The notes beneath the pieces are model-generated. The model saw nothing but the letters and a program-made list of their open reading frames with translations. It had not been told where the DNA came from and made no database searches. Source: an uncultured candidate division Zixibacteria bacterium (GTDB lineage Bacteria; Zixibacteria; MSB-5A5; UBA10806). Taken from it: 64,000 nt of DNA. The position numbers were made by a program, and so were the translations under genes. This document shows, piece after piece, positions 15,962-60,752 of this stretch; within the stretch, counting starts at the first letter, position 1, and each line of letters begins with the position of its first letter. The stretch is taken from NCBI GenBank assembly GCA_963801605.1, contig CAWDFP010000006.1, positions 288,001 through 352,000 of the forward strand. Reading direction: 5' to 3'.

Positions 15962-16888
15962 ATGCGCGTGGAACAGACTATTTCGATAGCGACTAAATCA
16001 CAAGCAGTAAAGAAAATCAGGTTCAATAAAGTCTTTTGGGCTGTGCTTTATTCAGCCGCAATTATCGTATATATATTTATTTTTTATGGCGGAGCATCGT
16101 TTTACCTGACTCCCTATATGGATCGGCCTTACAGCGCGGCATACCGGTCGCTTCGACCGGCCGGATTTACGGGTCATGCTTACGGCGTGATCGGTTCAGC
16201 GTTGATGATTTTGATGCTTTCCTATTCTCTTCGAAAAAGAGTCAGGGTATTACGAAATTGGGGGATGTTAAGCCGCTGGCTCGATACTCATATCTTTTTT
16301 GGCATTGTGGGACCGTTGCTGGTCGTGCTGCATACAGCATTCAAGGTACAAGGGTTGGTAGCTGTAAGTTTTTGGTCGATGGTGGCGGTTACTATAAGCG
16401 GTATTTTCGGGCGTTATTTGTATCTTCAGATACCGCGTAATATCCAGGGCGACGAGCTAAGTATAAAAGAGCTCGAGGAATCAAACCTGCGCTATTCACA
16501 AGAGCTTCAGAAGGAATATAATCTCTCGGAAGAGATCGTCAAACGACTGGAGGCTCGTGAAACTTTTAAGATTTCCGAAAGCGCGGGCGCTTTCAAAATC
16601 CTGGCGACGGTGTTTGTAAATGATGCGCTCCGCCCTTTTACATTTTTTACCCGAAAGCGAGAGGAGCACGCCGATCTTAAACACCTTCCCCACGAACAGC
16701 AAAAGAAGATTGTTCGTATCTTACACCGGAAGTCGATTTTGACCAGGCGCGTGCAGCTTTTAAATCACATGCAGCGTCTTTTTCACTATTGGCATGTAAT
16801 CCACAAACCGTTTGCGATAATTATGTATTTGATAATGGTGATTCATATTACGGTGGCTGTCTGGACGGGGTATAAATGGATTTTTTAA
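15962..16888 (+). CDS. Integral membrane diheme cytochrome b-like protein (ferric-reductase-type His pairs)
   Basis: TM helices with His pairs 14 residues apart (WLDTHIFFGIVGPLLVVLH; WHVIHKPFAIIMYLIMVIH); first gene of the cytochrome operon. Confidence 0.7.
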   Translation: MRVEQTISIATKSQAVKKIRFNKVFWAVLYSAAIIVYIFIFYGGASFYLTPYMDRPYSAAYRSLRPAGFTGHAYGVIGSALMILMLSYSLRKRVRVLRNWGMLSRWLDTHIFFGIVGPLLVVLHTAFKVQGLVAVSFWSMVAVTISGIFGRYLYLQIPRNIQGDELSIKELEESNLRYSQELQKEYNLSEEIVKRLEARETFKISESAGAFKILATVFVNDALRPFTFFTRKREEHADLKHLPHEQQKKIVRILHRKSILTRRVQLLNHMQRLFHYWHVIHKPFAIIMYLIMVIHITVAVWTGYKWIF

Positions 16889-16902
16889 GGATTGCGATTT
16901 CA

Positions 16903-18589
16903 ATGCGTCAATTATCTCTGGTCGCTTTATTAATCTTTCTTGTTTCGGGAAATCTTTTGGCGCAGCTTTCACCCGGTGAGCTTTCACGGCCGCATGCATA
17001 TCTGGAAGGCCTGGAAAATTGCAATAAATGCCATGGTTTCGAAGAAAAACTTTCGCCGGACAAATGCCTGGCCTGCCATCTGTTTCTCGCCGCTCGAATC
17101 AAGGCCGGGCAGGGGCTTCATGCCAACACCGAACATTCCGATTGCGGAAGCTGTCACGTTGAGCATCAGGGGAGAAACTTTATTATCATACATTGGAATG
17201 GCGGCGAGGAAAAGTTCGATCATAATCAGACAGGTTACAAACTCGATGGTAAACATGCAAAATTAGAATGCCGGGCCTGTCATAAGAGTAATAATATAAA
17301 TCCAACAGCTAAGTTACAATCGGATAAGATAGATCTCAATCGCACCTTCCTTGGGACTCGAAAAGGATTGTCTTTCCTGCCATCCAGATGAACATCACGG
17401 ACAATTAGCAAAGGACTGCCTGACCTGTCATATTATGGCAGGATGGAAACCTGCCAGCGCTTTTGACCATTCCAAGGCCAAATATATCCTAACCGGCAAG
17501 CATACTGACGTAACTTGCGTGAAGTGCCATCCGTCGCTGACGAATGAAAATCAGCCATCAGGTAAAGCGTATACCAAATTTACCGGATTGCAATTCCAGA
17601 AGTGTTTGGACTGCCACAAAGACGTTCACAACAATAAATTTGGGCAGAACTGCGAGAGCTGCCATAATACATCAAGCTGGACAAGTGTAAATCAAACAAA
17701 ATTCGATCATTCGAAAACCCAGTATCCGCTCGAACTTAAACATGTTTCGGTTGCCTGTAACAAATGCCATGTTCCGGGAAAGCCGCTTGCCGGATTAAAA
17801 TTCAAGCTCTGCACAGATTGCCACGGCGATTATCATCGGGGAGATTTCGCATCCCGCGAGAAAAAGGGCGCTTGCGAAGAGTGCCATACATTGGCGGGAT
17901 TTGAGATCACTAAATTTACTGTCGACGAACATCAAAAAACAAAATATCAGTTGGCGGGAAGCCACCTGGCAGTCCCTTGCGACGGCTGCCACAAGAAGGT
18001 GATTCTCAACGGTAATAATGAGACGGTTCATATCAAATTCGAAAGCACTCGCTGCCAGGTCTGTCATACTGATCCTCATAAAGGAGCAGTTGACAATTAC
18101 ATGCCAAAGGGCGGATGTGAGTATTGCCACTTAGTAGAAAACTGGCGAGCCAGTTCTTATGATCATTCGCAAGCGAAATTTGTTCTCGACGGCAAACATA
18201 AGACGATCGCATGCAAGGCGTGCCATCAAAAAAAGGGTACTGATCCGCCTCTCTTACAGTTTACCGAACTGGCGCAAAATTGTCAGGGGTGCCATGATGA
18301 TATTCATCGCGGGCAGTTTGTCCAGGTTTCTTCCACAAAAGATGGCTCAAGCAAAGATACGGAATGCAATCGCTGCCATACAGCTGTTGCCTGGAAAACG
18401 CTTAAATTCGATCATAGCCGCGATTCCAAATTTATTCTCGATGGTGCTCATATCAAGCTTTTATGCATCCAATGTCATAAACCTGAAATGATAGACGGTA
18501 AAGCTTTTATAAAATATAAGCCGCTGGGGTCCAAATGCAGCGATTGCCACGGCGGTCAAACGATCCAAACCGGAGCGGGCCAATCATGA
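16903..18589 (+). CDS. 20-heme cytochrome c, split by a +1 frameshift at ~17353
   Basis: Signal peptide from ATG 16903; 4 CxxCH in the first ORF + 16 in the second. Deleting one G from CTTGGGACTC gives continuous RTFLGLEKDCLSCH. Confidence 0.85.
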
Positions 18590-21500
18590 AAAGGATAGCT
18601 ATAGCAACGGTTATTAGTCTGGCACTCGCCACGATACTGTTAGCGGCTAACGCTACTCAAAACCCTCACGGGAAACTTCAGTGGGAGTGCTATGATTGTC
18701 ACAATACAACGTCATGGACGTCCTTCAAAGAACCGATGACATTTCAGCATGACAAAACCGGTTTTCCTTTGGTGGGAAGACACGGTAAGGTCGATTGCGG
18801 CAATTGCCATAAAGATTTGAAGTTCTCCATGATAGGTTCCGCCTGCGCCGATTGCCATCCCGACATACACAGAGCGCAATTCGGGACAGATTGCGAAAAT
18901 TGCCATACGCCAAAAAACTGGGCAGACAATAAGGAAATAATTAATCTTCATGCCTCTAACGGCTTTCCATTGGTGGGAGTGCATGCGATTGCCGATTGTG
19001 ATGCCTGCCATATCGGCCAACAAAATAAAGAGTATGCCGGCACGCCAGTCGATTGCAAAGGGTGCCACGAAAGCAATTTCACATCTTCCACTGATCCCAA
19101 TCACAATCAGGCGGGATTTTCATCCGATTGTCAGAAATGCCATTTGCAGGTGGCATCAAGCTGGAAAAACACGACGTATCAGCACCCGGCGGCATTTGCT
19201 CTTCACGGAGGACATTTAACAATCGGCTGCAACAGTTGCCATACTCAAGGCTTCACCAATACAAGTTCGGATTGCTATTCGTGTCATCAAGCGCAGTTTA
19301 ATGCCACAACCAATCCGACACACGCCGCCTTTGGTTTCCCAACTACCTGTGCCGCCTGCCACAACGATGTCTCCTGGCAAGGAACACAATTCGATCATGT
19401 GCAGGCCAGCCAATTCGCCTTAAATGGGGCACATGCAACCGCACTGTGCACATCATGCCATATAAATAATCAACTAACGGGGCTGGCTCGCGATTGTTAT
19501 GGCTGCCACCAAAGAGATTTTTCGGGAGCCAACAACCCGGATCACGTCCAGGGCAATTTCCCTCAGACTTGTCTGACCTGCCATAATGAAAACGCCTGGT
19601 CACCGGCGACATTCGACCACAGTCAGTCGCGTTTCCCGCTTACCGGAGCCCATACCGCGCTTCAGTGCCAGGCTTGCCATGCAAACGGCTATCAGAATAC
19701 GCCATTCGATTGTTTCTCATGCCATCAGACTAATTATAATGGCGCCACGAATCCCAATCACGTTCAGAACAACTTCGATCACAACTGCGCAGTCTGCCAC
19801 AGCACATCAGCCTGGTCACCGTCGACTTTTAACCACAACAATACTACTTTCCCTCTGACCGGAGCTCACACGTCAATACAGTGCGTAGCCTGTCATTCGG
19901 CCGGTTACCAAAATACTCCGACGGATTGTTATTCATGTCATCAAGCGGCATTCAACGGAGTAAGCGATCCCAACCACGTGACGAATAATTTCAATCACGA
20001 TTGCACTCAATGCCATAACACCTCGGCCTGGACTCCAGCGACGTTCGATCACGCCAACACCCGATTCCCCTTGACGGGGGCGCATATTCCTCTGCAATGT
20101 ATCGCTTGCCATGCAAATGGATATCAAAATACGCCATACGACTGCTATTCATGTCATGCCAACGACTTCAACAACGCCACGGATCCAAATCATATCCAGA
20201 ATAATTTCAGCCATGACTGCACCCAATGCCACAATACATCAAGTTGGAGCGATGGTTTCAACCACAGTAATTTGGGATTTCCTTTAACAGGTGCGCATAC
20301 ATCCCTGCAATGTATCGCCTGTCATGCTAACGGGTATCAAAATACGCCTGCTGATTGTTATTCTTGCCATGAAGCGGCATTCAATGCGGTGACTGATCCA
20401 AACCACGTCCAAAACAATTTCAATCATGATTGTACTTTATGTCACAGTACGACTTCCTGGTCACCGGCAACATTCGATCATAGCTCAACCACGTTCCCTC
20501 TTACAGGAGCGCACACATCCGTTCAGTGCATAGCCTGTCATGCCAACGGCTACCAGAATACGCCTACGGATTGCTATTCATGTCATGAAGCAGCCTTCAT
20601 TGGAGTATCCGATCCTAATCACGTCACGAATAATTTTGATCATAACTGCACGATCTGCCACACTACCACCGGCTGGTCCCCGGCGACATTCGATCATAAC
20701 GGCACGGCTTTCCCTCTAACGGGAGCGCATATATCGCTACAGTGCATAGCCTGCCATGCCAACGGATATCAAAATACGCCGACGGATTGCTGGTCCTGTC
20801 ATCAGGCAGCCTACAATGGGGCAACCGATCCCAACCATGTTCAGAATAATTTTGATCATAATTGCACGATCTGTCACAGCACCACGGGCTGGTCGCCGTC
20901 GACATTCAATCACAACAATACCGCTTTTCCTCTAACGGGAGCGCATATATCGCTGCAGTGTATAGCCTGTCATGCCAATGGTTATCAAAATACACCTACT
21001 GATTGCTGGTCATGCCATTCCGGCGATTACAATCGAACCACGGATCCGAACCATGTTCAGAATAATTTCAGCCATGACTGTACCCAATGTCATAACACTT
21101 CAAGATGGGATGATGGTTTTAACCATGGCAATTTAGGTTTCCCCTTAACCGGAGCGCACTCGACGCTTCAATGTATCGCATGTCACGCTAATGGATATAT
21201 TAATACGCCTGCGGATTGTTATTCCTGCCATGAAACGGCATTTATTGGTGTAACCGATCCCAACCACGTTCAAAACAACTTTAATCATGATTGTACTCAA
21301 TGCCATACAACAAATGGCTGGACGCCAGCCACATTTGACCATGCAGGTACGCCATTCCCGTTAACCGGGGCACACGTTTCGGTGCAATGTGTAGCATGCC
21401 ATGCGAACGGTTATCAAAACACTCCGACGGATTGCTATGCCTGCCATCAAACAGCATACGATGGCGTAACCGATCCTAATCACGTTCAAAACAACTTCAA

Positions 21501-22857
21501 TCATGATTGTACTCAATGCCATACTACAAATGGCTGGACGCCGGCTACATTTGACCATTCAGGAACGCCATTTCCGTTAACCGGGGCACATGTTTCGGTG
21601 CAGTGCATAGCATGCCATGCGAATGGTTATCAGAATACTCCCACAGATTGCTATTCCTGCCATCAAACCGCATATAATGGCGTAACCGATCCCAATCACG
21701 TTCAAAATAATTTCGATCATAATTGCACGATCTGCCACACTACCACAGGTTGGTCACCATCGACCTTTAATCACGCTAATACTCCATTCCCATTAACAGG
21801 AGCACACACATCATTGCAGTGCGTAGCCTGCCACGCTAATGGATATCAAAACACTCCGACAGATTGCTATTCCTGCCATCAAACTGCCTATAACGGAGTG
21901 ACTGATCCTAACCACGTTCAAAACAATTTTGATCATAACTGCACGACCTGTCATACCACTTCAGGCTGGTCACCGGCCACATTCGACCATAGCAATACTA
22001 CTTTCCCCTTAACAGGAGCGCACACATCGTTGCAATGCGTAGCCTGTCATGCCAACGGATATCAAAATATACCAACCGATTGTTATTCCTGCCATCAAAC
22101 TGCCTATAACGGAGTAACTGATCCCAATCACGTTCAAAATAATTTCGATCATAATTGCACGATCTGCCACACCACTACTGGTTGGTCACCGGCCACATTC
22201 GACCATAGCAATACTACTTTCCCCCTAACAGGAGCGCACACTTCTTTACAATGCGTGGCCTGTCATGCCAACGGATATCAAAATATACCAACCGATTGTT
22301 ATTCCTGCCATCAAACTGCCTATAACGGAGTGACTGATCCCAATCACGTGTCTGATAATTTCAGCTATATTTGTACGCAGTGCCATACTACAACAGGTTG
22401 GTCCCCGGCTACGTTTAATCATAATCAGACATCCTTCCCGCTAACGGGCGCGCATGTGAGCCTGCAATGCCTGAGTTGCCACGCCAATGGATTCGACAAC
22501 ACGCCGACCGATTGTTTTGCCTGCCATCAAAGCGATTTTAATGGCGCCACAAATCCAAACCATCAGAGCGCTGGTTTCCCGACTCAATGCGTAATGTGTC
22601 ATAACACCAGCGCCTGGAGCCCATCAACATTTAATCACGACGCCCAATATTTCCCAATCTACTCAGGAAATCACCGGGGACGATGGAGTACCTGCTCGCA
22701 GTGCCATACCAATCCCTCGGATTTTAGCACATTTGAATGTATCCTCTGTCATGAGCATAACCGCACTGACACAGATTCGCACCATCAGGGCGTGCCGGGC
22801 TATCAGTACAACAGCCAGGCCTGCTATAATTGCCACCCCAGAGGAAGCGGCGGATGA
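18586..22857 (+). CDS. Giant 58-heme cytochrome c of tandem triheme repeats
   Basis: ATGA overlap with the upstream stop; signal peptide MKRIAIATVISLALATILLAANA; 58 CxxCH counted by hand in 1423 aa. Confidence 0.93.
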   Translation: MKRIAIATVISLALATILLAANATQNPHGKLQWECYDCHNTTSWTSFKEPMTFQHDKTGFPLVGRHGKVDCGNCHKDLKFSMIGSACADCHPDIHRAQFGTDCENCHTPKNWADNKEIINLHASNGFPLVGVHAIADCDACHIGQQNKEYAGTPVDCKGCHESNFTSSTDPNHNQAGFSSDCQKCHLQVASSWKNTTYQHPAAFALHGGHLTIGCNSCHTQGFTNTSSDCYSCHQAQFNATTNPTHAAFGFPTTCAACHNDVSWQGTQFDHVQASQFALNGAHATALCTSCHINNQLTGLARDCYGCHQRDFSGANNPDHVQGNFPQTCLTCHNENAWSPATFDHSQSRFPLTGAHTALQCQACHANGYQNTPFDCFSCHQTNYNGATNPNHVQNNFDHNCAVCHSTSAWSPSTFNHNNTTFPLTGAHTSIQCVACHSAGYQNTPTDCYSCHQAAFNGVSDPNHVTNNFNHDCTQCHNTSAWTPATFDHANTRFPLTGAHIPLQCIACHANGYQNTPYDCYSCHANDFNNATDPNHIQNNFSHDCTQCHNTSSWSDGFNHSNLGFPLTGAHTSLQCIACHANGYQNTPADCYSCHEAAFNAVTDPNHVQNNFNHDCTLCHSTTSWSPATFDHSSTTFPLTGAHTSVQCIACHANGYQNTPTDCYSCHEAAFIGVSDPNHVTNNFDHNCTICHTTTGWSPATFDHNGTAFPLTGAHISLQCIACHANGYQNTPTDCWSCHQAAYNGATDPNHVQNNFDHNCTICHSTTGWSPSTFNHNNTAFPLTGAHISLQCIACHANGYQNTPTDCWSCHSGDYNRTTDPNHVQNNFSHDCTQCHNTSRWDDGFNHGNLGFPLTGAHSTLQCIACHANGYINTPADCYSCHETAFIGVTDPNHVQNNFNHDCTQCHTTNGWTPATFDHAGTPFPLTGAHVSVQCVACHANGYQNTPTDCYACHQTAYDGVTDPNHVQNNFNHDCTQCHTTNGWTPATFDHSGTPFPLTGAHVSVQCIACHANGYQNTPTDCYSCHQTAYNGVTDPNHVQNNFDHNCTICHTTTGWSPSTFNHANTPFPLTGAHTSLQCVACHANGYQNTPTDCYSCHQTAYNGVTDPNHVQNNFDHNCTTCHTTSGWSPATFDHSNTTFPLTGAHTSLQCVACHANGYQNIPTDCYSCHQTAYNGVTDPNHVQNNFDHNCTICHTTTGWSPATFDHSNTTFPLTGAHTSLQCVACHANGYQNIPTDCYSCHQTAYNGVTDPNHVSDNFSYICTQCHTTTGWSPATFNHNQTSFPLTGAHVSLQCLSCHANGFDNTPTDCFACHQSDFNGATNPNHQSAGFPTQCVMCHNTSAWSPSTFNHDAQYFPIYSGNHRGRWSTCSQCHTNPSDFSTFECILCHEHNRTDTDSHHQGVPGYQYNSQACYNCHPRGSGG
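19597..22614 (+). repeat. 14 in-frame tandem repeats of 216 bp (two of 213 bp), each encoding a triheme module
   Basis: Consensus W(S/T)PATFDHxxTxFPLTGAHxSLQ-CxACH-ANGYQNTPTD-CYSCH-QxAYNGVTDPNHVQNNFDHN-CTxCH; span 3018 bp = 14x216-6. Confidence 0.9.
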
Positions 22858-22881: not shown

Positions 22882-23667
22882 ATGAACATATTGTTATTGG
22901 TTTTCCCATTAGTATTGGCTCTTGGCGGAGAGAAAATAGAAACTCCGCACAAGGTTTTAAGGTTTGAGTGTAACGATTGTCATAGTTCCACAACCTGGCG
23001 GGAGGTCAAATTCGATCACGCTAAAACGGACTTTGCCCTTGAAGATCGGCATACGAAAGTAAAATGCGTCCAATGCCATTCGCTTGAGGATTTTCGTGTT
23101 GCGGGAAGTGATTGCGTTTCCTGTCATGATGATATTCATCAGGGCAAACTGGCCCATACTTGTGAACAATGCCACAGCGCCCGCGGGTGGTCCGTCTTCA
23201 ATACGTTGAAGGTTCATGCCAATACATCATTTCCCCTGATTGGCGCCCATGCCAGGCTCGATTGCCGCGCGTGTCATATCAGCGAAATAGAGGGAGAGTA
23301 TTCATTCTTGAAATCGGAGTGCATATTTTGTCATAAAACCGATTTTGAACAAGCTCAAAGTCCACCGCACACGCAGATGGGCCTGGGAACTCGCTGCGAG
23401 GATTGCCACTTTATGGTAAGTTGGCAACCAGCCAATTTTAGCGGACACGACTCGTTCTTTCCGATTTTTTCCGGCAGGCATGCCGGTGTCTGGACAAGCT
23501 GCGAAATTTGCCATGCCAGTTCGCAGGACTATACGATATTTGATTGTTTTAATTGTCACGAGCATTCCAAGGTTCGAATGGATGGTGCACATTCGGATAT
23601 CAGGAATTATGTATATGAAAGCGGCGCATGTTATTCTTGCCATCCTGGTGGCAGCGCTGGAGGATGA
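22882..23667 (+). CDS. Decaheme cytochrome c, short paralog of the 58-heme protein
   Basis: Signal peptide; 10 CxxCH; N- and C-terminal segments align by eye with the ends of the giant cytochrome. Confidence 0.9.
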   Translation: MNILLLVFPLVLALGGEKIETPHKVLRFECNDCHSSTTWREVKFDHAKTDFALEDRHTKVKCVQCHSLEDFRVAGSDCVSCHDDIHQGKLAHTCEQCHSARGWSVFNTLKVHANTSFPLIGAHARLDCRACHISEIEGEYSFLKSECIFCHKTDFEQAQSPPHTQMGLGTRCEDCHFMVSWQPANFSGHDSFFPIFSGRHAGVWTSCEICHASSQDYTIFDCFNCHEHSKVRMDGAHSDIRNYVYESGACYSCHPGGSAGG

Positions 23668-23669
23668 TC

Positions 23670-25271
23670 ATGAAAATATTAGCGATGCTCTTATTGCTAT
23701 TTTCGCCAGCCTATCTTCTGGCTCAAAAGACTACGTGCCATGTCAAGTATGTCTCCGGAGAAAGCATTTATATCGATGCCGGGAACGCTGACAGCCTGGC
23801 TGTAGGAGATACTCTTCGGATTGTGCACGGCGATAGCGTCACGGCAACGCTTGAGATATCTTTTGTAGCCGAAAATTCCTCGTCGTGCAAAATATTGAGT
23901 TCGTCCGGAGAAATCAGGGTAGGCGATTCGATTCAATTATCGCAAAAGCCTGTTATTGCCAAATCGATGCAGCCTGCGATTGATACCACCCAATCAGTTG
24001 CCATTCCCACGCCGGCACCGGCAGTGCCGGAACAAGCCGCAAAACCGAAGCCTGCCAGAGTCGATGGCAGCGTAGCGTTTCAGCTTTTTCGATTTACCGA
24101 TCGCAGCCCGTCCCACCTTAATTTTACCCAGCCGACCATGCGATTTAATTTAAAGGCAAACAAGCTTTTTGGCCAGGATATCACCCTTACTATCCGAACC
24201 GATAGCCGCTATAATATGCGCAGCCGCGCTTATAATATTGATGTACCTAAGAACGAATGGCGAAATCGAATATATCAGTTTTCTCTAGGCTTTGCCGGAG
24301 ACAACGCGCCATATAATTTCGAGGTTGGCCGAATCCTTTCAAATAAGGTCAGCGGAGTAGGGTATATCGATGGCTTTATGGCACAAAAAAGGGTGGGAAA
24401 TGGTTTTCAAATAGGAGGGTTTGGGGGAACTCAACCGGAGTGGCAATATTCCAATTTCCAAACCTCGCTTCAAAAATATGGGATTTTCGTAAGTTATGTA
24501 TCGGGTTCTTATCAGAAAAAACGCTTTGAATCAGCGGTGGCAGCCACTGGCGAATATCACGGTCAGATAGTTAGCCGGGAGTACTTCTTTATGAAAAACA
24601 ACCTCAATATTGGGGGCTCCTGGAACTTCTATCAAAGCAGCGAAATCGACATGAATCGCTCCTGGCGTAAGGCGAGAACTGGCAAGAGCTTATCGATAAC
24701 AAACCTGTTTCTTTCGGCGCGAGGCCGCCTATTTAAAAGGCTATCGGCATCTTTAAGTTATGATAACCGTAAAAATTATTGGACTTACGAGACGAGGTCT
24801 CTGGCCGACAGTCTGTTCGATAGTGTTCTTCGTCAGGGGATACGGACGGATTTATCGCTTCGGGCCGGAAAGGGGTTTTCGATCTTTACTAACTTTGGTT
24901 ACAATAAAAGATCAACCGATACCAGGGCCACTTACTCTTATGGAGGCGGCGTCAATAAGAGTAATTTCTTATCAACCAAGCAATTTTTTAACAGCCAGAT
25001 AACCGGTTTCTCGGGTCCTTTCACCGACGGATACAATCTATCTTTAACCGTTGGCCGATATCTGTGGGCGGGAAATATGCTCTCCCTAGGCTACGGTGCT
25101 TATGCCTATAAATTCAACGCCGCTGGAATCAGCAGACTTAACCAGTGGTTTCAAACCAACACGCAGTTCGATATAACTCATAGCGCCTATTTTTCCGGTA
25201 CATTCGAATACGATACCGGCAAGGATACCAAGGGCGAACGTCTGATTGGTGAATTAGGGTATCGTTTTTAA
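23670..25271 (+). CDS. Putative outer-membrane beta-barrel protein
   Basis: Signal peptide, small N-terminal beta domain, Pro/Ala linker, then ~400 aa of alternating amphipathic strands ending GELGYRF (terminal Phe, BAM-type); GGAGGA RBS. Confidence 0.75.
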   Translation: MKILAMLLLLFSPAYLLAQKTTCHVKYVSGESIYIDAGNADSLAVGDTLRIVHGDSVTATLEISFVAENSSSCKILSSSGEIRVGDSIQLSQKPVIAKSMQPAIDTTQSVAIPTPAPAVPEQAAKPKPARVDGSVAFQLFRFTDRSPSHLNFTQPTMRFNLKANKLFGQDITLTIRTDSRYNMRSRAYNIDVPKNEWRNRIYQFSLGFAGDNAPYNFEVGRILSNKVSGVGYIDGFMAQKRVGNGFQIGGFGGTQPEWQYSNFQTSLQKYGIFVSYVSGSYQKKRFESAVAATGEYHGQIVSREYFFMKNNLNIGGSWNFYQSSEIDMNRSWRKARTGKSLSITNLFLSARGRLFKRLSASLSYDNRKNYWTYETRSLADSLFDSVLRQGIRTDLSLRAGKGFSIFTNFGYNKRSTDTRATYSYGGGVNKSNFLSTKQFFNSQITGFSGPFTDGYNLSLTVGRYLWAGNMLSLGYGAYAYKFNAAGISRLNQWFQTNTQFDITHSAYFSGTFEYDTGKDTKGERLIGELGYRF

Positions 25272-25301: not shown

Positions 25302-26624
25302 ATGGAATCTGCAGCAATTTGGGTTATTACAGCTATTATAATTATAGGGATTATAACGCCCTATTTTGTCAAGTTCCGTAGAAGTCAGAAACACGATTTA
25401 GAGCGTATCAAGGAAGCACAACTCCTCGGATTGGACCGTCCCAGGGGACAATATCCTTTGATCGACATGTCGTTTTGTATCGGATGCGGCTCTTGTGTCA
25501 GAGCGTGCCCGGAGGAGGACGTTCTGGGCATCGTATTTGGGCGGGCGATGGTTGTCAATGGACAACGCTGTGTGGGGCATGGATACTGCGAAGCCGCCTG
25601 CCCGGTTGGGGCGCTGAAAGTGGGATTGGGCGATATTAAAACCCGACCCGATATTCCCATAACCGACGAATATGGTCAGACAAATATACCCGGCATCTAC
25701 ATAGCGGGCGAATTAGGAGGATTATCGCTTATAAGAAACGCGATAGATCAGGGACATAAGGCGATTAACCATATTTTTCAAAGCGGACGGCGCACGAATT
25801 CAAACGATATCTATGATGTTATCATCATTGGCGCCGGTCCAGCGGGGATGAGTGCGTCACTGGCGGCCATAAAGTATAATTTGCGATATGTTACGTTCGA
25901 CCAGCAACAGCCCGGCGGCACGATCCTTCAATACCCCCGTCAAAAATTGGTGATGACTCAACCGGTGGAAATTCCACTTTACGGCAAGCTCGATGCTGAG
26001 GAATATTCCAAGGAAGCGCTTCTTGAAATTTGGCAGGATGCAGTTCAAAAAAACAGCGTTTCCCTTAAATGCGACGAAAAAGTGGAACGGGTAATCACAG
26101 GTGACGGAATTATCGAAATTCAGACCCCAAAAGGAGGTTATCGAGCCGCGAATGTTATCCTGGCAATCGGACGACGCGGTACGCCAAGAAAACTGGGAGT
26201 GCCCGGGGAGGATCTTCCAAAGGTGATGTATCAACTCGTTGATGCTCAGTCGTATCAGAATAAAAATATCCTAATTGTAGGTGGTGGTGACAGTGCGGTT
26301 GAGGCGGCGGTCGGCCTGGCAAGGCAGAAAGGCAACAAGGTCACGATTTCATATCGTCAGGCTAAATTTGCGCGGGTCAAAAAGAAAAACGAGGACCGCA
26401 TTAATGAAATAATAGCGCAAAAAAAAGCCCGTCCAATATTCTTTTCGAATGTTCTCGAGATCAGAGAAAAAACGGCGCTGCTCAGGGTTGGCGACAATGA
26501 GAATCTCGAGATCCCCAACGATTATGTTTTCATATTTGCCGGGGGCGAACCGCCGTTTAAGATGCTAAATGAGATCGGAATAGTATTCGGGGGAGAGGCT
26601 AAGCCGATCCCTCTGGCATCATAA
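25302..26624 (+). CDS. Membrane-anchored 4Fe-4S ferredoxin / FAD-dependent NAD(P)H oxidoreductase (thioredoxin-reductase-like fold)
   Basis: N-terminal TM; CIGCGSCVRACP and CVGHGYCEAACP; TNIPGIYIAGE; IIGAGPAG; GRRG; VGGGDSAVE. Confidence 0.88.
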   Translation: MESAAIWVITAIIIIGIITPYFVKFRRSQKHDLERIKEAQLLGLDRPRGQYPLIDMSFCIGCGSCVRACPEEDVLGIVFGRAMVVNGQRCVGHGYCEAACPVGALKVGLGDIKTRPDIPITDEYGQTNIPGIYIAGELGGLSLIRNAIDQGHKAINHIFQSGRRTNSNDIYDVIIIGAGPAGMSASLAAIKYNLRYVTFDQQQPGGTILQYPRQKLVMTQPVEIPLYGKLDAEEYSKEALLEIWQDAVQKNSVSLKCDEKVERVITGDGIIEIQTPKGGYRAANVILAIGRRGTPRKLGVPGEDLPKVMYQLVDAQSYQNKNILIVGGGDSAVEAAVGLARQKGNKVTISYRQAKFARVKKKNEDRINEIIAQKKARPIFFSNVLEIREKTALLRVGDNENLEIPNDYVFIFAGGEPPFKMLNEIGIVFGGEAKPIPLAS

Positions 26625-26773: not shown

Positions 26774-28096
26774 ATGAGCAATACCTTGAGATTTCAAAGC
26801 ATAGCATTAGTTATTTTAGTAATTATAATCGGATTCGCTTGCCTGTCTGCCGGGGCTATTGAGACAAGCCCCACGACGGTTGCGCCCAAATACAAGATAA
26901 GCTTCACTGAGCGTTTTCGAATCGAAACCTGGGATAATACCACCAGTTTGAATGACACTCTCCACGCCGGAACCAGCTACACCAGAAACAGATCTACCAT
27001 TATGGGGCAGTGGTTTCCCAATGAGAAGGTTGAGTTGGCTTTAAAATTCGCCAACGAGTTTCGTTCCTATTTAGTCCCTGAGAACAGGCAATTTAATATA
27101 GATGAGCTCTTTATCGACCAGCTTTATTTCAAATGGAAAAATATCGCTAACGTTCCGCTGACCGTTACATTTGGCCGTCAAAACATGCAGTTCGGCGAGG
27201 GCTTTGTGATTATGGATGGAGGCCCGCTCGATGGATCACGCAGCGCTTATTTTAACGCCGTTCGCGCCGATTATGAATTTGCCTCCAAAAAGAATATCTC
27301 CGCGTTTTATACAGTCCAGAATCGTCGGGACGATTTGCTTCCCATTATAAATAATAAGAAAAAAGCCTTGAACGAACAAAACGAGCGCTCTGGCGCTATT
27401 TATTTTAACGGAGATTTCGATTCGAGGAATTTTCAGGCTTACTTTATCCGCAAAGATGCTAAAAGCGCAACCTCGCCCCCATACAATACTCACGTTAACA
27501 CCATCGGGGAACGCACCGTTACTCCGGTATATGCGAAATTATCGCTTACCTTTGAAGGCGCTTATCAATTCGGTAAACGTGGTGGAGCCGACCTGTCTGC
27601 TTATGGCGGTTATGCTTACCTTAGTTATCCGTTTTGTTGGCCGCTGCGCTTCCCTGTGAGCATGACGATCGGGACGATATATCTCAGCGGTGATAATCCC
27701 GACACGCACAAGTATGGGGGATGGGACCCTCTCTACGGACGTTGGCCTAAGTGGAGCGATTCCTATATCTACACCTTGCTGAAAGAAAATGGCGTTGCCT
27801 ATTGGACTAATCTCTTTTCGCTCTGGGGGCGAGCGCAAATTGATATCGCAAAGGGCGTTAAATTCTCATTCGATTATCATCATCTGAGAGCTCCGTTTAA
27901 CGACACGACCAGAATGACGTTCCCCGGCGGCAAGGGCAAATATCGAGGTGAATTGGGAATATTCAAATTGACTTATCAGATCAACAAGATGGTCAATGGA
28001 CGGATTATTTGGGAGAATTTTAATCCCGGCTCGTATTACCTTCCCGGCGCTGACAAGGCCAATTGGATGCAAATTGAATTTATGTTGAGTCTATAA
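26774..28096 (+). CDS. Alginate-export (AlgE-like) family outer-membrane porin
   Basis: Signal peptide; ERFRIETW, IDQLYF, GRQNMQFGEG, FNAVR, EGAYQFG, YLSGDNP, DPLYG motifs. Confidence 0.75.
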   Translation: MSNTLRFQSIALVILVIIIGFACLSAGAIETSPTTVAPKYKISFTERFRIETWDNTTSLNDTLHAGTSYTRNRSTIMGQWFPNEKVELALKFANEFRSYLVPENRQFNIDELFIDQLYFKWKNIANVPLTVTFGRQNMQFGEGFVIMDGGPLDGSRSAYFNAVRADYEFASKKNISAFYTVQNRRDDLLPIINNKKKALNEQNERSGAIYFNGDFDSRNFQAYFIRKDAKSATSPPYNTHVNTIGERTVTPVYAKLSLTFEGAYQFGKRGGADLSAYGGYAYLSYPFCWPLRFPVSMTIGTIYLSGDNPDTHKYGGWDPLYGRWPKWSDSYIYTLLKENGVAYWTNLFSLWGRAQIDIAKGVKFSFDYHHLRAPFNDTTRMTFPGGKGKYRGELGIFKLTYQINKMVNGRIIWENFNPGSYYLPGADKANWMQIEFMLSL

Positions 28097-28141
28097 AATA
28101 TTAGAAAATGTGATGTATTGGCGATAGAGTAAGGAGATATT

Positions 28142-29620
28142 ATGGCGCTAAAAATTATCATTCTGGCGGCCTTCGCCCTGATGACTATCACGGTGGGCAT
28201 CATCGCCTCACGCAAAGCCCGCTCGTTTTCCGATTTCTTTTTAGGCGGTAACGATATCGGCCCCTGGATGACGGCTTTCACCTATGGCGCCGCTTATTTT
28301 TCGGCGGTGCTGTTCATCGGTTTTGCAGGCAAGATCGGTTGGGATTTCGGGATGTCAGGTCTCTGGATCGCCCTGGGCAATTCTTTTATCGGAGTTCTTG
28401 GGGTCTGGTGGATATTGGGCCCGCGAATTAAAAAGATGGCCACCGAAACCGGCGCTCAGACCATGGCAGAATATTTCGAGTTGCGATACAACAGCAAAGC
28501 CCTGAATATTTACACCTCGATTTGCATTTTCATTTTCTTTATCCCCTATACGGCGGCGGTATTTATGGGGCTTTCATATTTATTTAAAGCTAATTTCAAT
28601 GTCGAATATACTACGGCATTAATTTTCATGGGAGTTTTCACTGCTATATATCTGGTATTGGGCGGTTATCGTTCAATGACGATGATCGATGTTATCTTTG
28701 GAATAATCATGATTGCCGGAGTGATTACGCTTTTTTTCAGTACCGTAACCCGAGGCGGAGGCATGGCGATGATCTTTTCCGGGTTGGAAGCCATAAATCC
28801 CAAGTTGACATCGACTATCGGTCCGCCGGGAATCTGGCCTCTTTTCAGTCTGGTCTTTTTGACAAGCGTGGCTCCTTTTGCAATGCCGCAGCTTGTGCAG
28901 AAATTTTATGCGATTAAAGATCAACGTTCGATTCGAATCGGTATGGTGGCATCAACTATATTTTCAATCCTGATCGCGGGAGTCGCTTATTTTACCGGCG
29001 CCACCGCCAGGCTTTTTATAAATCCTGAAAATGCACCGGCCGCTTTCAATAATGGCAAGCCGGTGTTCGATGCCCTGGTACCGGAATTTTTAACCAAGGC
29101 GATACCGGAAGGCCTGGCAATCCTGATATTGCTTCTGGTGCTATCGGCCTCGATGTCAACCCTGGCGGCTTTGGTGCTTATTTCAAGCTCTACGGTCTCC
29201 AAAGATGTTTATCACAGATTTATCAATAAAAAGGCGAGCGATAAGAGGCTGACGATTCTGATGAGAGCCTGTAGCGCCTTTTTTGTGCTGCTTTCAGTGA
29301 TAATGGCCTATTTCAAACCGGCAACGATCGTGGCAATTCTGGGAATCTCCTGGGGCTCGATCGGGGCGGCTTTCCTGGGGCCGTTTGTGTGGGGATTACT
29401 CAGTAAACGAACCACCAAGTTTGGCGCATTTTCATCGTCAGTGCTTGGCCTGGCGACATGTTTGATACTATATGTTAAGGGAATTTCTCCGCCCGAGGCC
29501 GGTACAATTGGAATGCTGATATCTCTGGGGGCTTGCCCGATAATAAGCTTGTTCGCATTCGGCAAAGAACCGGTTATCGCTCCCGAGGTGCTTGAAGTAG
29601 AAGCGAAGCAGCGGATATAA
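28142..29620 (+). CDS. Sodium:solute symporter (SSS family)
   Basis: DFFLGG, YFSAVLFIGFAG, TMAEYFELRY, LGGYRS...D, MPQLVQKFYA, SASMST. Confidence 0.9.
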   Translation: MALKIIILAAFALMTITVGIIASRKARSFSDFFLGGNDIGPWMTAFTYGAAYFSAVLFIGFAGKIGWDFGMSGLWIALGNSFIGVLGVWWILGPRIKKMATETGAQTMAEYFELRYNSKALNIYTSICIFIFFIPYTAAVFMGLSYLFKANFNVEYTTALIFMGVFTAIYLVLGGYRSMTMIDVIFGIIMIAGVITLFFSTVTRGGGMAMIFSGLEAINPKLTSTIGPPGIWPLFSLVFLTSVAPFAMPQLVQKFYAIKDQRSIRIGMVASTIFSILIAGVAYFTGATARLFINPENAPAAFNNGKPVFDALVPEFLTKAIPEGLAILILLLVLSASMSTLAALVLISSSTVSKDVYHRFINKKASDKRLTILMRACSAFFVLLSVIMAYFKPATIVAILGISWGSIGAAFLGPFVWGLLSKRTTKFGAFSSSVLGLATCLILYVKGISPPEAGTIGMLISLGACPIISLFAFGKEPVIAPEVLEVEAKQRI

Positions 29621-29644
29621 ATATAGCTAAATTAAAATCAATTG

Positions 29645-29674
29645 CCGGGGATTATTATACTCCCCGGTTTTTTT
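29645..29674 (+). terminator. Intrinsic terminator
   Basis: CCGGGGA...TCCCCGG stem followed by TTTTTTT. Confidence 0.7.
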
Positions 29675-30269
29675 ATTTCTTCACAACTCCCAGCGGAGCG
29701 ACTACCTTACCATAAACCTCATTTAATACCTGAGCCAAACCAGCATACATCGCCAGCAAACCGCAAATGATACCTTCAATGCCGGCAACCAGCTTAACGG
29801 CCGCGCTTTCGGTGGCATCGCCCAATGCTAACAGGAAGAAAAGCAGCGCCAGGGTGCCGAAAACAAGCTGTAAGGCGCGACTAATTTTCAGGGTTCCGAT
29901 AAACATGATGGCTGTAAACAGACCCCAGATAAAAAGATAGGACGCCATAGCCGCATTACCCGGAGCAGAGCCCCATCCGATACGAGGGAAAACAAGCAAC
30001 GCCACCAGGCTCATCCAGAAAAGGCCATAGGCGGTAAAAGCGGTTGTGCCAAATGTATTTTCCTTTTTCCATTCCATAATTCCGGCGATAACCTGCGCCA
30101 AACCTCCAAAAAACAGACCCATTCCCAGTATCATGGTATCGAGCGGGTATAGCCCGGCATTGTGCAGATTAAGGAGCACAGTGGTCATTCCAAATCCGAG
30201 TAAACCTAAAGGCGCCGGATTTGCGGTAGATTCTTTAACTATGCGCACCGAAGCGGCGGCGGTATCCAT
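29673..30269 (-). CDS. satP: Acetate/succinate uptake transporter (AceTr/GPR1/FUN34/YaaH)
   Basis: Signature [39 protein letters not shown]. Confidence 0.93.
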
Positions 30270-30440
30270 TACTTTCCTCCATTCATCAATTTAGTATCCG
30301 ATCATCGACCTTATTTAATATCCCATGCCACGTTTGTCCATAATAATTCCGGGGTTACGATATGCTTGCTTAGTTTGAGATTTCATTATAACTTATACTT
30401 TGAAATGGAATATTAAACAATTAAGGCGGAATCAAACCCT

Positions 30441-31358
30441 ATGAAATTTGAAAATATCATTTTGCACGAGGTGGGGCCACGAGATGGTTTACAGGTCGAA
30501 AAGACCAGTGTGCCGCTGGATGAGAAAATTCGCTGGATAGATGGTGTTCTTAAAAGTGGAATCGATATCATTCAGCTTGGCTCCTTTGTCAATCCGGAAA
30601 AGGTGCCTCAAATGGCCGATACCGATAAGCTTTTCGCGCATTACGCATCGGTGGATAAAAAAGGAGTGATTTTATCGGCATTAGTGCTCAATGAAAAGGG
30701 GTTGGAGCGTGGCCTCGCTTGCGGAGTTGAGATGTTCTGCATGGGTGTTTCCGCCAGTGAGACTCATAGCAAGAAAAACACCGGCATGACCACGTCGGAG
30801 GCGTTGGGGCGAATTATACCGATGGCTAAACAAGCGCAAGCGGCCGGGAAAAAAGTACAGGTTTCGATTCAATCGGCGTTCGGTTGCGGTTTCGAGGGGC
30901 CAGTACCGGCGGAAAGAGTGCTTTCAATCGCCAAAGAGTATTTTGCCAATGACATTAGAAATATCAGCTTAGCCGATACAGCCGGACATGGCAACCCCGT
31001 TCAGGTTGAAGAGCTTTTCGGATCGCTAAAAGAACTTGAACCTGATGCACAGCTGGCCTGCCATTTCCATAATACTTATGGCCTGGGGTTAGCTAACTGC
31101 TACGCCGCGTTGAAATCAGGTGTTACATCCTTTGAGAGCGCATTTGGCGGTTTGGGCGGATGCCCCTTTACAAAGCTTCCGGCCGGTAATGTTTCCACCG
31201 AAGACCTGGTTCATTCGCTGCAGCGCATGGGGCTTCGTCGCGATATCAAGCTTGATATTCTGCTCGATGTGGCTCGTATGGTGGCAGGCTACTTTAACAG
31301 AGAGCTGCCGGGCTTTATCCTGAAATCCGGATCAATTGTTGATTTTAAGAAAGTCTAA
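30441..31358 (+). CDS. Hydroxymethylglutaryl-CoA lyase family protein
   Basis: EVGPRDGLQ, VPQMAD, SLADTAG, HFHNTYG, GGLGGCPF, GNVSTEDL. Confidence 0.9.
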   Translation: MKFENIILHEVGPRDGLQVEKTSVPLDEKIRWIDGVLKSGIDIIQLGSFVNPEKVPQMADTDKLFAHYASVDKKGVILSALVLNEKGLERGLACGVEMFCMGVSASETHSKKNTGMTTSEALGRIIPMAKQAQAAGKKVQVSIQSAFGCGFEGPVPAERVLSIAKEYFANDIRNISLADTAGHGNPVQVEELFGSLKELEPDAQLACHFHNTYGLGLANCYAALKSGVTSFESAFGGLGGCPFTKLPAGNVSTEDLVHSLQRMGLRRDIKLDILLDVARMVAGYFNRELPGFILKSGSIVDFKKV

Positions 31359-31375
31359 TATCGCAGGAGAATAAA

Positions 31376-32569
31376 ATGAAGCTTCTTGAAAAAATCCGCG
31401 TGATCGATATGACCAATGTCCTTTCGGGACCGTTTACCACGTTACATCTATCGCTATTAGGCGCCGAGGTAATTAAAATAGAAAATCCCGATGGTGGAGA
31501 TTTAGCTCGAAAACTGGGCAATGTCCCCAAGCTCAACAAAGAACTGATGGGCACGAGTTTCTTAGCACAGAACGCCAACAAGAAATCGTTAACGTTGAAC
31601 TTGAAAGTACCCGAGGCCAAGGAGATTTTCGGGAAGCTTCTAAAAACAGCCGATGTGGTAGTTGAAAATTTTCGTCCCGGCGTGATGGCCCGGTTGGGTT
31701 TCTCATACGAAGAGATCTGCAAGATTAATCCCAAAATTGTTTATTGCGCTATCTCGGGTTTCGGGCAGACCGGTCCGGATGCTTTTAAGCCAGCCTATGA
31801 CCAGATTATCCAGGGGCTTTCCGGAGTGATGGATGTCAATGGAGACGAGCGGCTTCATCCTCTGCGCGCCGGTTTCCCGGTTTGCGATACCGTCGGCGGC
31901 CTGAATGCCGCCTTTGCGATCATGGCAGCGTTATATCATCGGGAACGAACCGGTGAGGGTCAGTTTATTGATATCGCCTTGCTTGATGCTATTATGCCGC
32001 TGATGGGCTGGGTGGCGGCTAATTTGCTCATTGGCGGTCAGGCGCCCATCCCGATGGGAAACGACAACTTTACCGCGGCTCCATCCGGGGCATTCCGTAC
32101 GAAGGATGGTTTTATAAATATCGCCGCCAACCAACAGAAGCAGTGGGAGGATCTGGCAGATTCGGTTTGCCTGCCGGAACTAAAAACCGATCCCCGGTTC
32201 CAGGAACGTGATACACGGAAAGCGAACCGCAAGCTTTTGACCCCAATTCTCGAAGAAAAGCTAATGCAAAATACCACCGAGCATTGGGTCGATCTCCTAA
32301 ATGCCAAAGGGATACCGTCGGGGGATATCGTTGGCCTCGAAAAAGCGCTGACCAGCGATCAAATCAAGCATCGGGAAACTCTGACTACCATTAAAGATCC
32401 GCAAATTGGAGATGTCAGGATTTTTAATCTTTCTGCTAAATTTTCCAAGACACCGGCCAAGGTAGAAGCTCCGCCTCCGAGGCTTTCAGCGCATACCGAA
32501 GAGATTTTAATGTCGCTCGAATATACCAAAGAAGATATAAAATCGCTTAAAGAAAAGATGGCGATTTAA
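31376..32569 (+). CDS. Family III CoA-transferase (CaiB/BaiF)
   Basis: LSGPF...LGAEVIKIE, NANKKS, DVVVENFRPG, SGFGQTGP, AYDQIIQ, catalytic-Asp region VCDTVGG. Confidence 0.92.
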   Translation: MKLLEKIRVIDMTNVLSGPFTTLHLSLLGAEVIKIENPDGGDLARKLGNVPKLNKELMGTSFLAQNANKKSLTLNLKVPEAKEIFGKLLKTADVVVENFRPGVMARLGFSYEEICKINPKIVYCAISGFGQTGPDAFKPAYDQIIQGLSGVMDVNGDERLHPLRAGFPVCDTVGGLNAAFAIMAALYHRERTGEGQFIDIALLDAIMPLMGWVAANLLIGGQAPIPMGNDNFTAAPSGAFRTKDGFINIAANQQKQWEDLADSVCLPELKTDPRFQERDTRKANRKLLTPILEEKLMQNTTEHWVDLLNAKGIPSGDIVGLEKALTSDQIKHRETLTTIKDPQIGDVRIFNLSAKFSKTPAKVEAPPPRLSAHTEEILMSLEYTKEDIKSLKEKMAI

Positions 32570-32990: not shown

Positions 32991-33441
32991 AAATCTCTCC
33001 TGGCTCTATTTAATGTTTCGCATAACATCCGTATATAACCTGTTTTTGCAATTACGGATATATACCTTACGATTATCGGCATGTTTTCAATAACATTACA
33101 ATACTTATTATAACAAGATCATACCATGTTTACCTCTCTTGTACATTTTTAATTGAAACTCGCGAGTCGAATTTTCATCAATTTCTTATTATATATTGAC
33201 ATGGCTTCCCATTAATCTTTATATAAAGGCAGTGCGGTTTCCGAACAACGGGCGGATTTACGCGCGTTGTGAGCTTCAAAAAGGCTCCATGAAGAACTTA
33301 AATCGAAGACGGGCAAAAGATGCGGTAATTTTGAATCTCGTCGAATTAAATCAGCGGGAAAATTAACAATAAATGATAGAAAACACAGTTGCTAATTTAG
33401 AACTGTGTGTTTCCTCGGTTAACAACGTCAGGAGTGTACTT

Positions 33442-36400
33442 ATGCGAAAAGTATCAAGGTTTTTAATTCTCTCTTTGGTGTTATTGGGAATTGCAGCCAG
33501 CGCCTTTGCCGGGCAGTACAGCGAGGCATTTCCGCAATATTTGGCCAGTCACAAATCCGGCACCATGGTGCCGGCTATAATTACGATGGCTGACAGGCTG
33601 GACTTAGGTGCTTTGCAGAATAACCTTTCTGCGACACATGCTGATAGAAGGCTCTGGCATGAAACGGTCGTGCGGGCTCTGCAGGCCAAAGCCACTGAGA
33701 GCCAGGCCGATTTATTGGCGGCACTTTCCGTTATGACCCAGAATGGCGAAGTAGAGAGTTACTCGTCCCTCTGGATTGGTAATATGGTCATTGTAACGGC
33801 AACTCCCGAGGCCCTTGACCAGTTAGTGTCGCGAAACGATGTCATGCTGGTCAGCCCTGATTATTTAATCGAAAGCATTGAGCCAGTTCATACGGGCGGA
33901 AACAGCCCCACCATAGCAGGCCATGAGATTGGCGCCACACGGCTTCATGTGCCAGAAGTATGGGCTATGGGGATAACCGGAGAAGGACGGCTTGTAAGCC
34001 ATTTAGATACCGGAGTACAAGGTAGTCACCCGGCCCTGGCTGCCAGATGGAGAGGCGTAGCAGATACGCGCTACGAGGGCCATCCGCAATGGGCCTGGTA
34101 CGATCCCAGACCTCCACATACAACATTTCCTACCGCTTTTGGCGCACATGGAACCCATACCATGGGGACGATATGCGGCAGAAGCACATCCACACCTGAC
34201 ACAGTAGGCGTTGCTATTGACGCGCAGTGGATTTCAGCTGGCGTAATTGACCGTGTCGATATTCCCACAACAATGGCGGATGCTATAACTGCATTACAAT
34301 GGATTGCGGATCCCGATGCAGATCCGTCCACAGTTTGGGATGTGCCCGACGTGTGTTCCAACTCCTGGGGTGTGAGGACTGACTTTGGCTATCCTCCGTG
34401 CGATGAAACTTTGTGGGAAGTTATCGATGGCGCCGAAGCGGCCAGTGTAGTGGTCGTATTCGCCGCCGGTAATGAAGGATATAGCGGCGCGCGAACGATC
34501 CGCAGACCTGCCGATAGGGCAACCACGGAATTGAATTGTTTTTCCGTGGGCGCCGTGAACGGCGATAACCCGAGTCTCCCAATAGCGGATTTTTCCTCGC
34601 GGGGACCGGCAAATTGCACACCATCCGGAAATGATACTTTCAAACCTGAAGTGGTCGCTCCGGGAGTTAACGTGCGCTCTTCGGTTCCCGGTGGTGGCTA
34701 TGAAAGCGGCTGGGATGGCACCTCGATGGCCACACCGCACATCGCGGGTATCATAGCATTAATGAGGCAGGCCAACCCTAATTTAACAGTTGATCAGATT
34801 AAACAGATTTTACTCGACACCGCCACAGATTTAGGAACCAGCGGTGAAGATAATGCCTATGGCAAGGGAATCGCGAACGCTCTGGCGGCCGTGCAAATGG
34901 CATTATCCTATTTGGACGGTTGGGGAACGCTTGGCGGAGTAATAACGGATCAGGCTTCCGGCACGCCCATTCAGGGAGCGAGAGTATCGGTAATCGGCCG
35001 TCCCTGGGGTGCTTCTTCCCGAGGCAACGGCGAATATTTCATGTTCGCCCCAGCCGATACTTTGTGGCAAATTAAGGTTGAATATCCGCCCACGCACCTC
35101 TCGGTTTTCGATACCGTAACGATTGCCGAAAACGATACAATCATCAGGAATTATGCGCTGGAGGGTAAAGTAGCGGTTCTGCTTAAGGCATCATTTGCTA
35201 ATCCCGCTAATGTTGATTACCGCACTTTCTTCATTAAGGGAAGTTGGGATGCTGAAGGCATGTACGATTCCACCTGGTCGGGTCCGCAGATCGAGATAAA
35301 AGACGATGGCGTTTCTCCGGATCAGACTATACACGACGGTATCTTCACAGGTAAAGTGTTATTGAGAATAGACGGCGTTCATACCTACCGTTGGGCGCTT
35401 TATAGTGAGAGCAATGGCGGTGACGCCGCTCGCTTGCAGCCTGGCGCCGACATCCAGATTCCCAACGCTACGCCGCCAGTAATTCCAACTCTCGCGGTTA
35501 ATCCATCCGGATCAGATAATAATTGGATAATTTCCGCAATTGGCGATAACAGCTTAAATCTCGACCTGGTTCGTAATTTCGGCAATGTCGCCACAAAATG
35601 GGGCGCGGCTTGCACTCTTTACACTCCCAACACTTACACTTTTAGATTTAAGGTGATGCATTCCGATAGCGCCAGTTATGGATCCGGAGGTATCGGCGGA
35701 CCGGACCTGCATTTCACACCGCCAATTACAGGGTCTTACGTATTCGTATTTAATGACGCGACGGATATGTACTATGTTTTGATGAGCGGTACGCAAGGTC
35801 CTCCAACAACTTTAGCGGCAACATCGGGTCTCGATCATCATGTAACTCTCACCTGGCGGGCGCCTACAGCTCCGGAACCGCCTTTGATTGTCCCACCGGA
35901 TAACGGCACACCAAGAATCATGGATACAGAAGTATTGGCGGGTTACAATGTTTATCGCGATACCCTGCCCTACCCATTCGATCGAAATTTATTGGTGAAC
36001 AATAGCCTTATCACGGTGGTCAATTATGATGATCACGGTGGACTCCAGGGTCATTTAACAAACGGCAAAACCTACTACTATCAAACCTCGGCAGTTTATG
36101 ATATCGGAGGCGGACAACTCGTAGAAGCCGGCCCATCGAATCAAGCGCTGGCTACGCCTCAGAATCATCCTCCGGCCACACCGACATTCCTGATTGCCGG
36201 CAGTGCCGGTCGCGTAATCAATCTCAAATGGAATTTCCTAAATGATATTGGCGATCTGGATCATTTCAGCGTCGAGCGTATGTTGATGCCATCAGGCGCC
36301 TGGACCGAAGTAGGCACAACCGTTGATACTGTTTTCTCGCAAACGATTCCTGACGGCGAGGACGGTTCTTACGGATATCGAGTCACCGCAATTGACGACG

Positions 36401-58889: not shown

Positions 58890-58924
58890 CGCCTGATTTG
58901 CAGGGAATCTATAAAGGCGGTAAT

Positions 58925-59797: not shown

Positions 59798-59809
59798 GCG
59801 AGACACATT

Positions 59810-60676: not shown

Positions 60677-60752
60677 TGGTGTATCGATGGCGGGTTTTTC
60701 AACCCGGTGCATACGCCTGAATTAATAGATGAAAATTTTTAAGGAGGATAAT

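Follow-up and report, generated by a model that had tools for sequence, protein, structure and literature searches.

The window studied here is a stretch of 64,000 nucleotides from the genome of an uncultured Zixibacteria bacterium. It contains a conserved operon of six genes on the same strand, the third of which encodes a predicted cytochrome c with 58 heme-binding motifs (Table 1). An earlier note, made from the letters of this DNA alone, had described that protein as a possible monomeric nanowire, either extracellular or acting as an electron capacitor in the periplasm. It had overlooked the operon, which would make the 58-heme protein one part of a conduit across the whole cell envelope.

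Table 1. Genes of the operon and the tandem array inside its third gene, with positions in the window.
Feature	Positions	Strand	Basis or remark
Inner-membrane protein (IMP), 308 aa, predicted diheme cytochrome b of the ferric-reductase-like type	15962..16888	+	motif match
20-heme cytochrome c, K/R-rich, likely periplasmic, ending with a two-heme unit	16876..18589	+	open reading frame (ORF) and ortholog alignment
58-heme repeat cytochrome c	18586..22857	+	Sec-type signal, N-cap, 18 triheme modules and C-cap
216-bp tandem array, most recently expanded modules	19596..22349	+	TRF: 12.8 copies, 74% matches
Short 10-heme paralog sharing its N-cap and C-cap with the 58-heme protein	22882..23667	+	40% identity to the C-terminal 137 aa of the 58-heme protein
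Predicted outer-membrane beta-barrel, 533 aa, N-terminal soluble domain, C-terminal Phe	23670..25271	+	sequence pattern
Membrane-anchored ferredoxin and FAD/NAD(P)H oxidoreductase	25302..26624	+	TrxR/YpdA/FNR fold, without redox CxxC

The 58-heme cytochrome and its family

The start codon of the 58-heme gene overlaps the stop codon of the gene upstream (ATGA), and its ORF encodes 1423 aa with 58 CxxCH motifs (24.5 aa per heme). In 2000 shuffles of the protein the mean number of such motifs was 0.84 and the maximum 6, and all 116 cysteines lie inside the motifs. One heme belongs to an N-terminal cap, which follows the signal-like N-terminus with the pattern NPH..CxxCH..W..FxH, 54 belong to the 18 triheme modules and three to a C-terminal cap. 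Exactly 72 aa were found in 11 of the 17 modules that were individually measured, the others having 67–77 aa. Both the motif count and the triheme modules of about 72 aa given in the earlier note were thus confirmed. At DNA level, pairwise identity among the modules reaches 87%. The composition of the protein differs from that of its partner: lysine plus arginine account for 1.7% of residues, against 13% in the 16-heme part of the 20-heme cytochrome, and serine, threonine, asparagine and glutamine for 36%, against 22%. Threonine, alanine, serine and glycine are among its commonest residues.

A homolog search (proteins of 782–2491 aa, E <= 0.001) yielded 2293 relatives. The best 120 of them, a set skewed to long repeats that includes the 58-heme protein itself and 119 others, have a median of 68 hemes and a maximum of 100. 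Among the 61 complete-looking relatives in this best 120, 44 exceed 58 hemes and the heme number of 54 is of the form 3n+1. Because the family ranges from 10 to 100 sites, 58 hemes is a mid-range value and not an exceptional one, a context that the earlier note had also missed. The C-terminal 137 aa of the protein matched 64 of 201 sampled Zixibacteria genomes, its own included.

Apart from the motifs, the protein contains 73 histidines and four methionines (positions 1, 51, 82 and 1337), none of the latter at a recurring module position, which agrees with the claim that the modules have essentially no Met. Three non-motif histidines per module, in F.H, G.H and PNH, are invariant or near-invariant in three alignments (A2, A3 and A4), and in the 119 long homologs the number of non-motif histidines per heme has a median of 1.07 and a minimum of 0.98. 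Since three conserved histidines accompany three hemes, this counting supports well the predicted all-bis-His ligation with one conserved distal histidine per heme, as had been proposed. The fourth histidine that had been added to these three fared differently: it is present at 12 of the 18 positions in the 58-heme protein and at 368 of 2434 equivalent positions (15%) in the 119 homologs, and therefore it is not a conserved ligand, whereas F.H, G.H and PNH are.

The operon and related loci

The IMP contains two WX3HX13H motifs (aa 106 and 277) and an SGxxG motif (aa 146), and its four histidines are invariant in 13 sequences. A simple hydropathy scan gave four helices and a fifth near aa 70–89 is plausible by eye, five being the number in the definition of the PCC3 cluster type discussed below. 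From these motifs, the IMP is likely the entry point of the conduit. The gene that follows is split in this assembly by one frameshift near 17352–17373 into ORFs 16876–17391 (4 hemes) and 17351–18589 (16 hemes), and an intact ortholog aligns contiguously across both frames. The barrel protein had no Pfam match, and a family search gave only a weak ExtJ match to its N-terminal 50 aa; among named Atlas clusters, those closest to it are outer-membrane barrels (0.86), which serves as a lead only. The last product is anchored at its N-terminus and matched TrxR-fold ferredoxin-NADP reductases in a homology search, a redox CxxC being present in none of the 42 ORFs scored. By these resemblances it is likely the cytoplasmic electron source. 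We also observed that its second iron-sulfur (FeS) motif (aa 90–100, window 25569–25601) reads CxxHxxCxxxC, with histidine in place of the second cysteine, in all 42 orthologs scored as well as in the three fusion proteins described below; a 3Cys-1His or [3Fe-4S] site is possible there.

A scan with the IMP confirmed at least 497 relatives, from which 80 loci, partly kin to each other, were kept. Their hosts were Zixibacteria, Calditrichota, Ignavibacteria, Acidobacteriota, Bacteroidota and others, with Zixibacteria prominent among the best named ones. The barrel gene was found in 53 of these loci and the flavoprotein gene in 54, both together in 50, and the three loci with the barrel alone are contigs of 5–9 kb. 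Of 41 genomes searched with the IMP, 14 gave a match, its own included, and 12 regions taken from IMP-matching genomes, some of which also belong to the 80-locus sample, have the operon genes in common as far as their contigs extend. Heme numbers per locus were counted leaving out truncated, frameshifted or pattern-failing ORFs. Of the 55 intact ORFs for the first cytochrome, 50 encode 20 hemes and the rest 17, 19 or 23, whereas the second, long one varies between 10 and 73, always as 3n+1 (25 of 25). A fixed length suits a part spanning the periplasm and a free length suits an outer arm. At some loci (L058, L070 and L080) a 10-heme protein alone occupies the slot of the long cytochrome. The 10-heme paralog of the operon, present at a minority of related loci, is possibly an alternative short arm.

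The flavoprotein and the IMP are also joined in nature. Among 7997 candidates scored, three proteins of 687–743 aa (P0241–P0243) fuse the two, with 38–43% identity in the flavoprotein part, 25–26% in the IMP part and both histidine pairs intact. Together with the linkage of the genes, this fusion suggests an entry from NAD(P)H like that of NADPH oxidases (NOX).

The 20-heme and long proteins have the same module type (hhalign 99.9%), in which a two-heme unit [H H C C] alternates with a one-heme unit [H C], and the register of this repeat runs on over the gene boundary. By the strict pattern, a two-heme unit closes the 20-heme protein at 42 of 49 junctions and a one-heme unit opens the long protein at 44 of 49. 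Of the seven misses at the end of the first protein, three differ only at a glycine, two are junctions of a long with a 10-heme protein and two involve broken genes. The continuous register suggests that one array may have been split and that its halves could dock head to tail. Ligation across chains would be unnecessary, because the histidine counts balance within each chain.

Some observations touch the mobility and the variants of the operon. Plasmid searches returned the operon only from Emticicia oligotrophica, whose plasmid pEMTOL02 (L027:8860-20658) carries the heme-maturation gene ccsA, the IMP, the flavoprotein, two cytochromes with 23 and 40 hemes and the barrel; the whole operon beside ccsA offers a cultured model and is a sign of mobility. 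Distant IMP homologs on proteobacterial plasmids (L028:8288-10442, L029:6974-10457 and L030:6842-10528) are flanked by a 2Fe-2S protein and a small c3-type cytochrome, with 7 hemes in L029 and L030, and the one in L029 adjoins hydrogenase genes. They may represent a reduced version of this arrangement that lacks the barrel. In a genome of the same genus, two genes convergent with the operon (L015:2594-5433) have N-termini which we take to resemble those of ATPase and platform proteins of type II secretion or type IV pili.

Comparison with known systems

The operon was compared with the PCC3 cluster type, described by He et al. (2017; PMC5566968) as an IMP, a periplasmic multiheme cytochrome (MHC), an extracellular MHC and a porin. 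Median heme numbers of 21 for the periplasmic and 34 for the extracellular cytochromes were reported, with examples of 63 and 85 hemes that were presented as molecular wires (PMC5566968); for PCC3, wires as well as capacitors have been proposed. In PCC3 the IMP is some 300 aa long, and here as in PCC4 it carries SGXXG and two WX3HX13H motifs, the two HX13H pairs serving two b hemes (PMC5566968). Hoover et al. (2023; PMC9900912, PMC10734462) gave 10–35 and 21–27 hemes for PCC3 cytochromes, whose AlphaFold2 (AF2) models were long and mostly linear. The order of IMP, two cytochromes and barrel in our operon is that of Slit_1446–1449, the PCC3 genes of strain ES-1 (PMC11429942), with localisation here assigned by prediction. 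In addition, our IMP has a similar length and both WX3HX13H and SGXXG, the first cytochrome is near-constant and the second highly variable, and 24.5 aa per heme falls within the 22–39 of the large PCC3 MHCs, which have T/S-rich repeats. However, PCC3 was described from Proteobacteria, whereas the hosts here are Zixibacteria-like bacteria, members of the FCB group and Acidobacteriota. Moreover, PCC3 was described with four genes and a quinone-linked IMP, whereas our operon adds the 10-heme paralog and a conserved FeS-flavoprotein; the available text of PMC5566968 mentions no flavoprotein for PCC3. By gene order and IMP motifs, and with the gene cluster and motifs of PCC3 present, the system would work like PCC3 and is a possible member of that type.

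The earlier note had likened the protein to the Geobacter cytochrome GSU1996. As in GSU1996 (PDB 3OV0, 12 hemes) and GSU2210 (27 hemes), a single chain is built from triheme repeats; PF14522 passed its cut-off with the 58-heme protein and the family profile matched 3OV0 weakly (E 9e-7). However, each GSU1996 domain has one His-Met heme (PMC10138318), whereas the modules of the 58-heme protein lack Met. The protein also has five times as many hemes and belongs to an operon with a barrel and an IMP. In addition, the order of motifs in its modules differs from that of c7 cytochromes, and the AF2 model of its C-terminal part had no structural match among PDB chains. The comparison therefore holds as an analogy and not as a demonstrated relationship, on account of the His-Met heme in each GSU1996 domain and the missing PDB match. 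Neither the MtrA/DmsE decaheme model TIGR03508 (41.9 of 192 bits) nor the HmcA model NF045713 (80.3 of 400 bits) reached its cut-off with the 58-heme protein.

With NOX and ferric reductases (FRD) the IMP has in common the two HX13H pairs for b hemes and a FAD/NAD(P)H partner that is sometimes fused. The flavin part here has instead the TrxR/YpdA fold with a ferredoxin domain, which differs from the dehydrogenase fold of NOX, and the electrons would go to a chain of c hemes, whereas in NOX and FRD the acceptor is O2 or a metal chelate. Finally, a cluster from Rifle Burkholderiales with a 24-heme and a 49-heme cytochrome and a porin, differing by insertions and deletions of heme domains, was described by Arbour et al. 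(2020; PMC7399161). By that description it resembles ours in having a conserved smaller cytochrome, a larger one that varies by heme domains, and then a porin, but it is proteobacterial and no flavoprotein is mentioned in the available text. Our literature search, which did not cover subscription papers, found no paper on the flavoprotein-linked form or on the in-register junction of the 20- and 58-heme proteins. Nor is the operon described in the available parts of PMC13013709, PMC3903129, PMC6295460, PMC11475568 and PMC10732223, although the supplements of PMC11475568 may list the family.

Interpretation and alternative explanations

We consider that the 58-heme protein is likely the variable-length, probably outward arm of a PCC3-like conduit that would deliver electrons of NAD(P)H to extracellular acceptors, with a probability of about 0.58. 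Electrons would pass from NAD(P)H through FAD to the FeS clusters of the anchored flavoprotein, from these to the two b hemes of the IMP, then to the 20-heme periplasmic cytochrome and, through the barrel, along the 58-heme arm to the acceptors. Motifs, ligand count, gene order, linkage, the flavoprotein-IMP fusions and the fixed and variable heme numbers are observed; heme loading, rod shape, location, docking and direction of flow are inferred. The S/T/N/Q-rich and K+R-poor composition of the arm also resembles that of the T/S/A/G-rich extracellular PCC3 cytochromes (PMC5566968). Two PF01578 heme-maturation genes and two secretins in the genome likewise speak for this reading. An elongated wire fold is likely, and if each heme contributed 1 nm the length could be about 58 nm at most. 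The single-chain wire of the earlier note is plausible, but PCC3 cytochromes with as many as 85 hemes had already been put forward as such wires (PMC5566968).

Several data weigh against an outward arm of this kind. None of 46 N-termini contained a lipobox and no obvious export tag was seen, and no route to the surface is known for the 58-heme protein, despite the two secretins. The barrel was assigned from a sequence pattern and an Atlas lead below 0.9, the fusions are distant relatives seen without their gene neighbourhoods, and the 20-heme partner has a frameshift in this assembly. The AF2 model of aa 1140–1423 (106 sequences; pLDDT 87.8) shows a confident repeating fold, which speaks for the arm, but its pTM of 0.60 is insufficient to establish a straight rod. 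The 20 hemes of the first cytochrome (3n+2; 17–23 overall) differ from the 21, 24 or 27 of published periplasmic PCC3 cytochromes (PMC9900912). PCC3 clusters themselves are functionally unverified, according to the CL21 preprint, and the extracellular PCC3 cytochrome of ES-1, Slit_1448, was undetected in the proteomes of every listed condition (PMC11429942).

The missing lipobox and export tag behind a Sec-type signal would be expected if the 58-heme protein stayed in the periplasm, lying along the membranes or coiled between them as a capacitor for about 58 electrons, with the barrel receiving the short C-cap or the 10-heme paralog. GSU1996 and GSU2210 are periplasmic and have been proposed as capacitors (PMC10138318), and additional modules would mean additional capacity. 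Nevertheless, since the partner is fixed at 20 hemes while the long cytochrome varies in threes, the outward arm is favoured over a periplasmic store. The differing surface composition of the two proteins and the tight linkage to an outer-membrane barrel argue in the same sense, and the 10-heme protein that stands alone at some loci would be a poor capacitor, so that we regard this explanation as unlikely. Rather improbable, in our opinion, is that the same cable is wired in another way, either with the IMP exchanging electrons with quinones, as in the model of He et al., or with inward flow to NAD(P)+ that ends at the flavoprotein. The sequence does not fix the direction of flow, and TrxR-fold ferredoxin-NADP reductases are reversible. 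In print, the model for PCC3 involves quinones and was built around the oxidation of Fe(II) (PMC5566968). But the flavoprotein accompanies the barrel at 50 of 53 loci and is fused to the IMP in some proteins, both of which argue for direct coupling. Moreover, driving electrons inward from typical bis-His c hemes onto NAD(P)+ would be uphill.

The remaining doubts concern the locus itself. If the frameshift at about 17352–17373 were real, the locus would be decaying and the 58-heme protein would be cut off from its periplasmic connection. However, when other genes of the assembly were roughly tested, 8 of 52 were also split over frames, so the frameshift is probably a sequencing error; its site contains a G run, the other five genes of the operon are intact, and we believe decay to be very improbable. 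Given the indel errors of the assembly and the repeats in the gene, the number of modules could be an artefact of over-expansion, a possibility that the earlier note had named. This was refuted to the point of being negligible, because the longest exact DNA repeat within the gene is 74 bp, each of the 55 comparisons between 72-aa modules showed a difference in at least 27% of identical-residue codons, and intact 58-heme ORFs are present at four other loci, with 67 and 73 hemes at others.

Returning to the outward arm, a bolder form of it is that the 20- and 58-heme proteins are halves of one array divided within a module, docked head to tail as a 78-heme wire through its own barrel. This wire would be fed directly from NADPH by a NOX-like flavoprotein/cytochrome b pair bypassing quinones, its reach would be set by adding modules (10 to 100 hemes), and the 10-heme paralog would be a short tip. 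We put this forward only tentatively.

Other features of the surrounding DNA were noted as well. Downstream of the operon (window 26774–32569) lie genes for an alginate-export-like barrel and a sodium:solute symporter, then, by eye, for a small membrane protein, lyase-like and CoA-transferase-like products, probably a cluster for carboxylate uptake and use that is not seen as part of the conduit. In window 33373–40009 a large secreted S8-peptidase-like ORF overlaps the next one in another frame (38807–38919), both with the same repeat motifs, probably through another assembly frameshift. Four adjacent ORFs in window 58850–64000 have, by eye, pilin-like or PilX-like N-termini. Elsewhere in the genome there are further multiheme clusters (G000:C6:773354-788176 and 861617-866203), including a 42-heme protein and a pair with 10 and 19 hemes.

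The cluster type (PCC3) was already described and the size of the 58-heme protein is unremarkable; as far as our literature search reached, what appears new is the flavoprotein-linked form, the fusion of the flavoprotein to the IMP and the register that continues across the gene boundary. The characterised bacterial nanowires are, to our knowledge, polymers of small cytochromes, and a single chain with its length set by the gene would, if true, be a different design. Such a chain would also offer a ready scaffold for building bis-His heme wires to a desired length, from a module of which no structure has been solved. A conduit starting at NAD(P)H would provide fermenters and aerobes beyond the classic metal reducers with a direct electron sink outside the cell. 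And if the 78-heme wire were true, a monomeric nanowire with its length coded in the gene would exist in a third of the sampled Zixibacteria and in many Bacteroidota.

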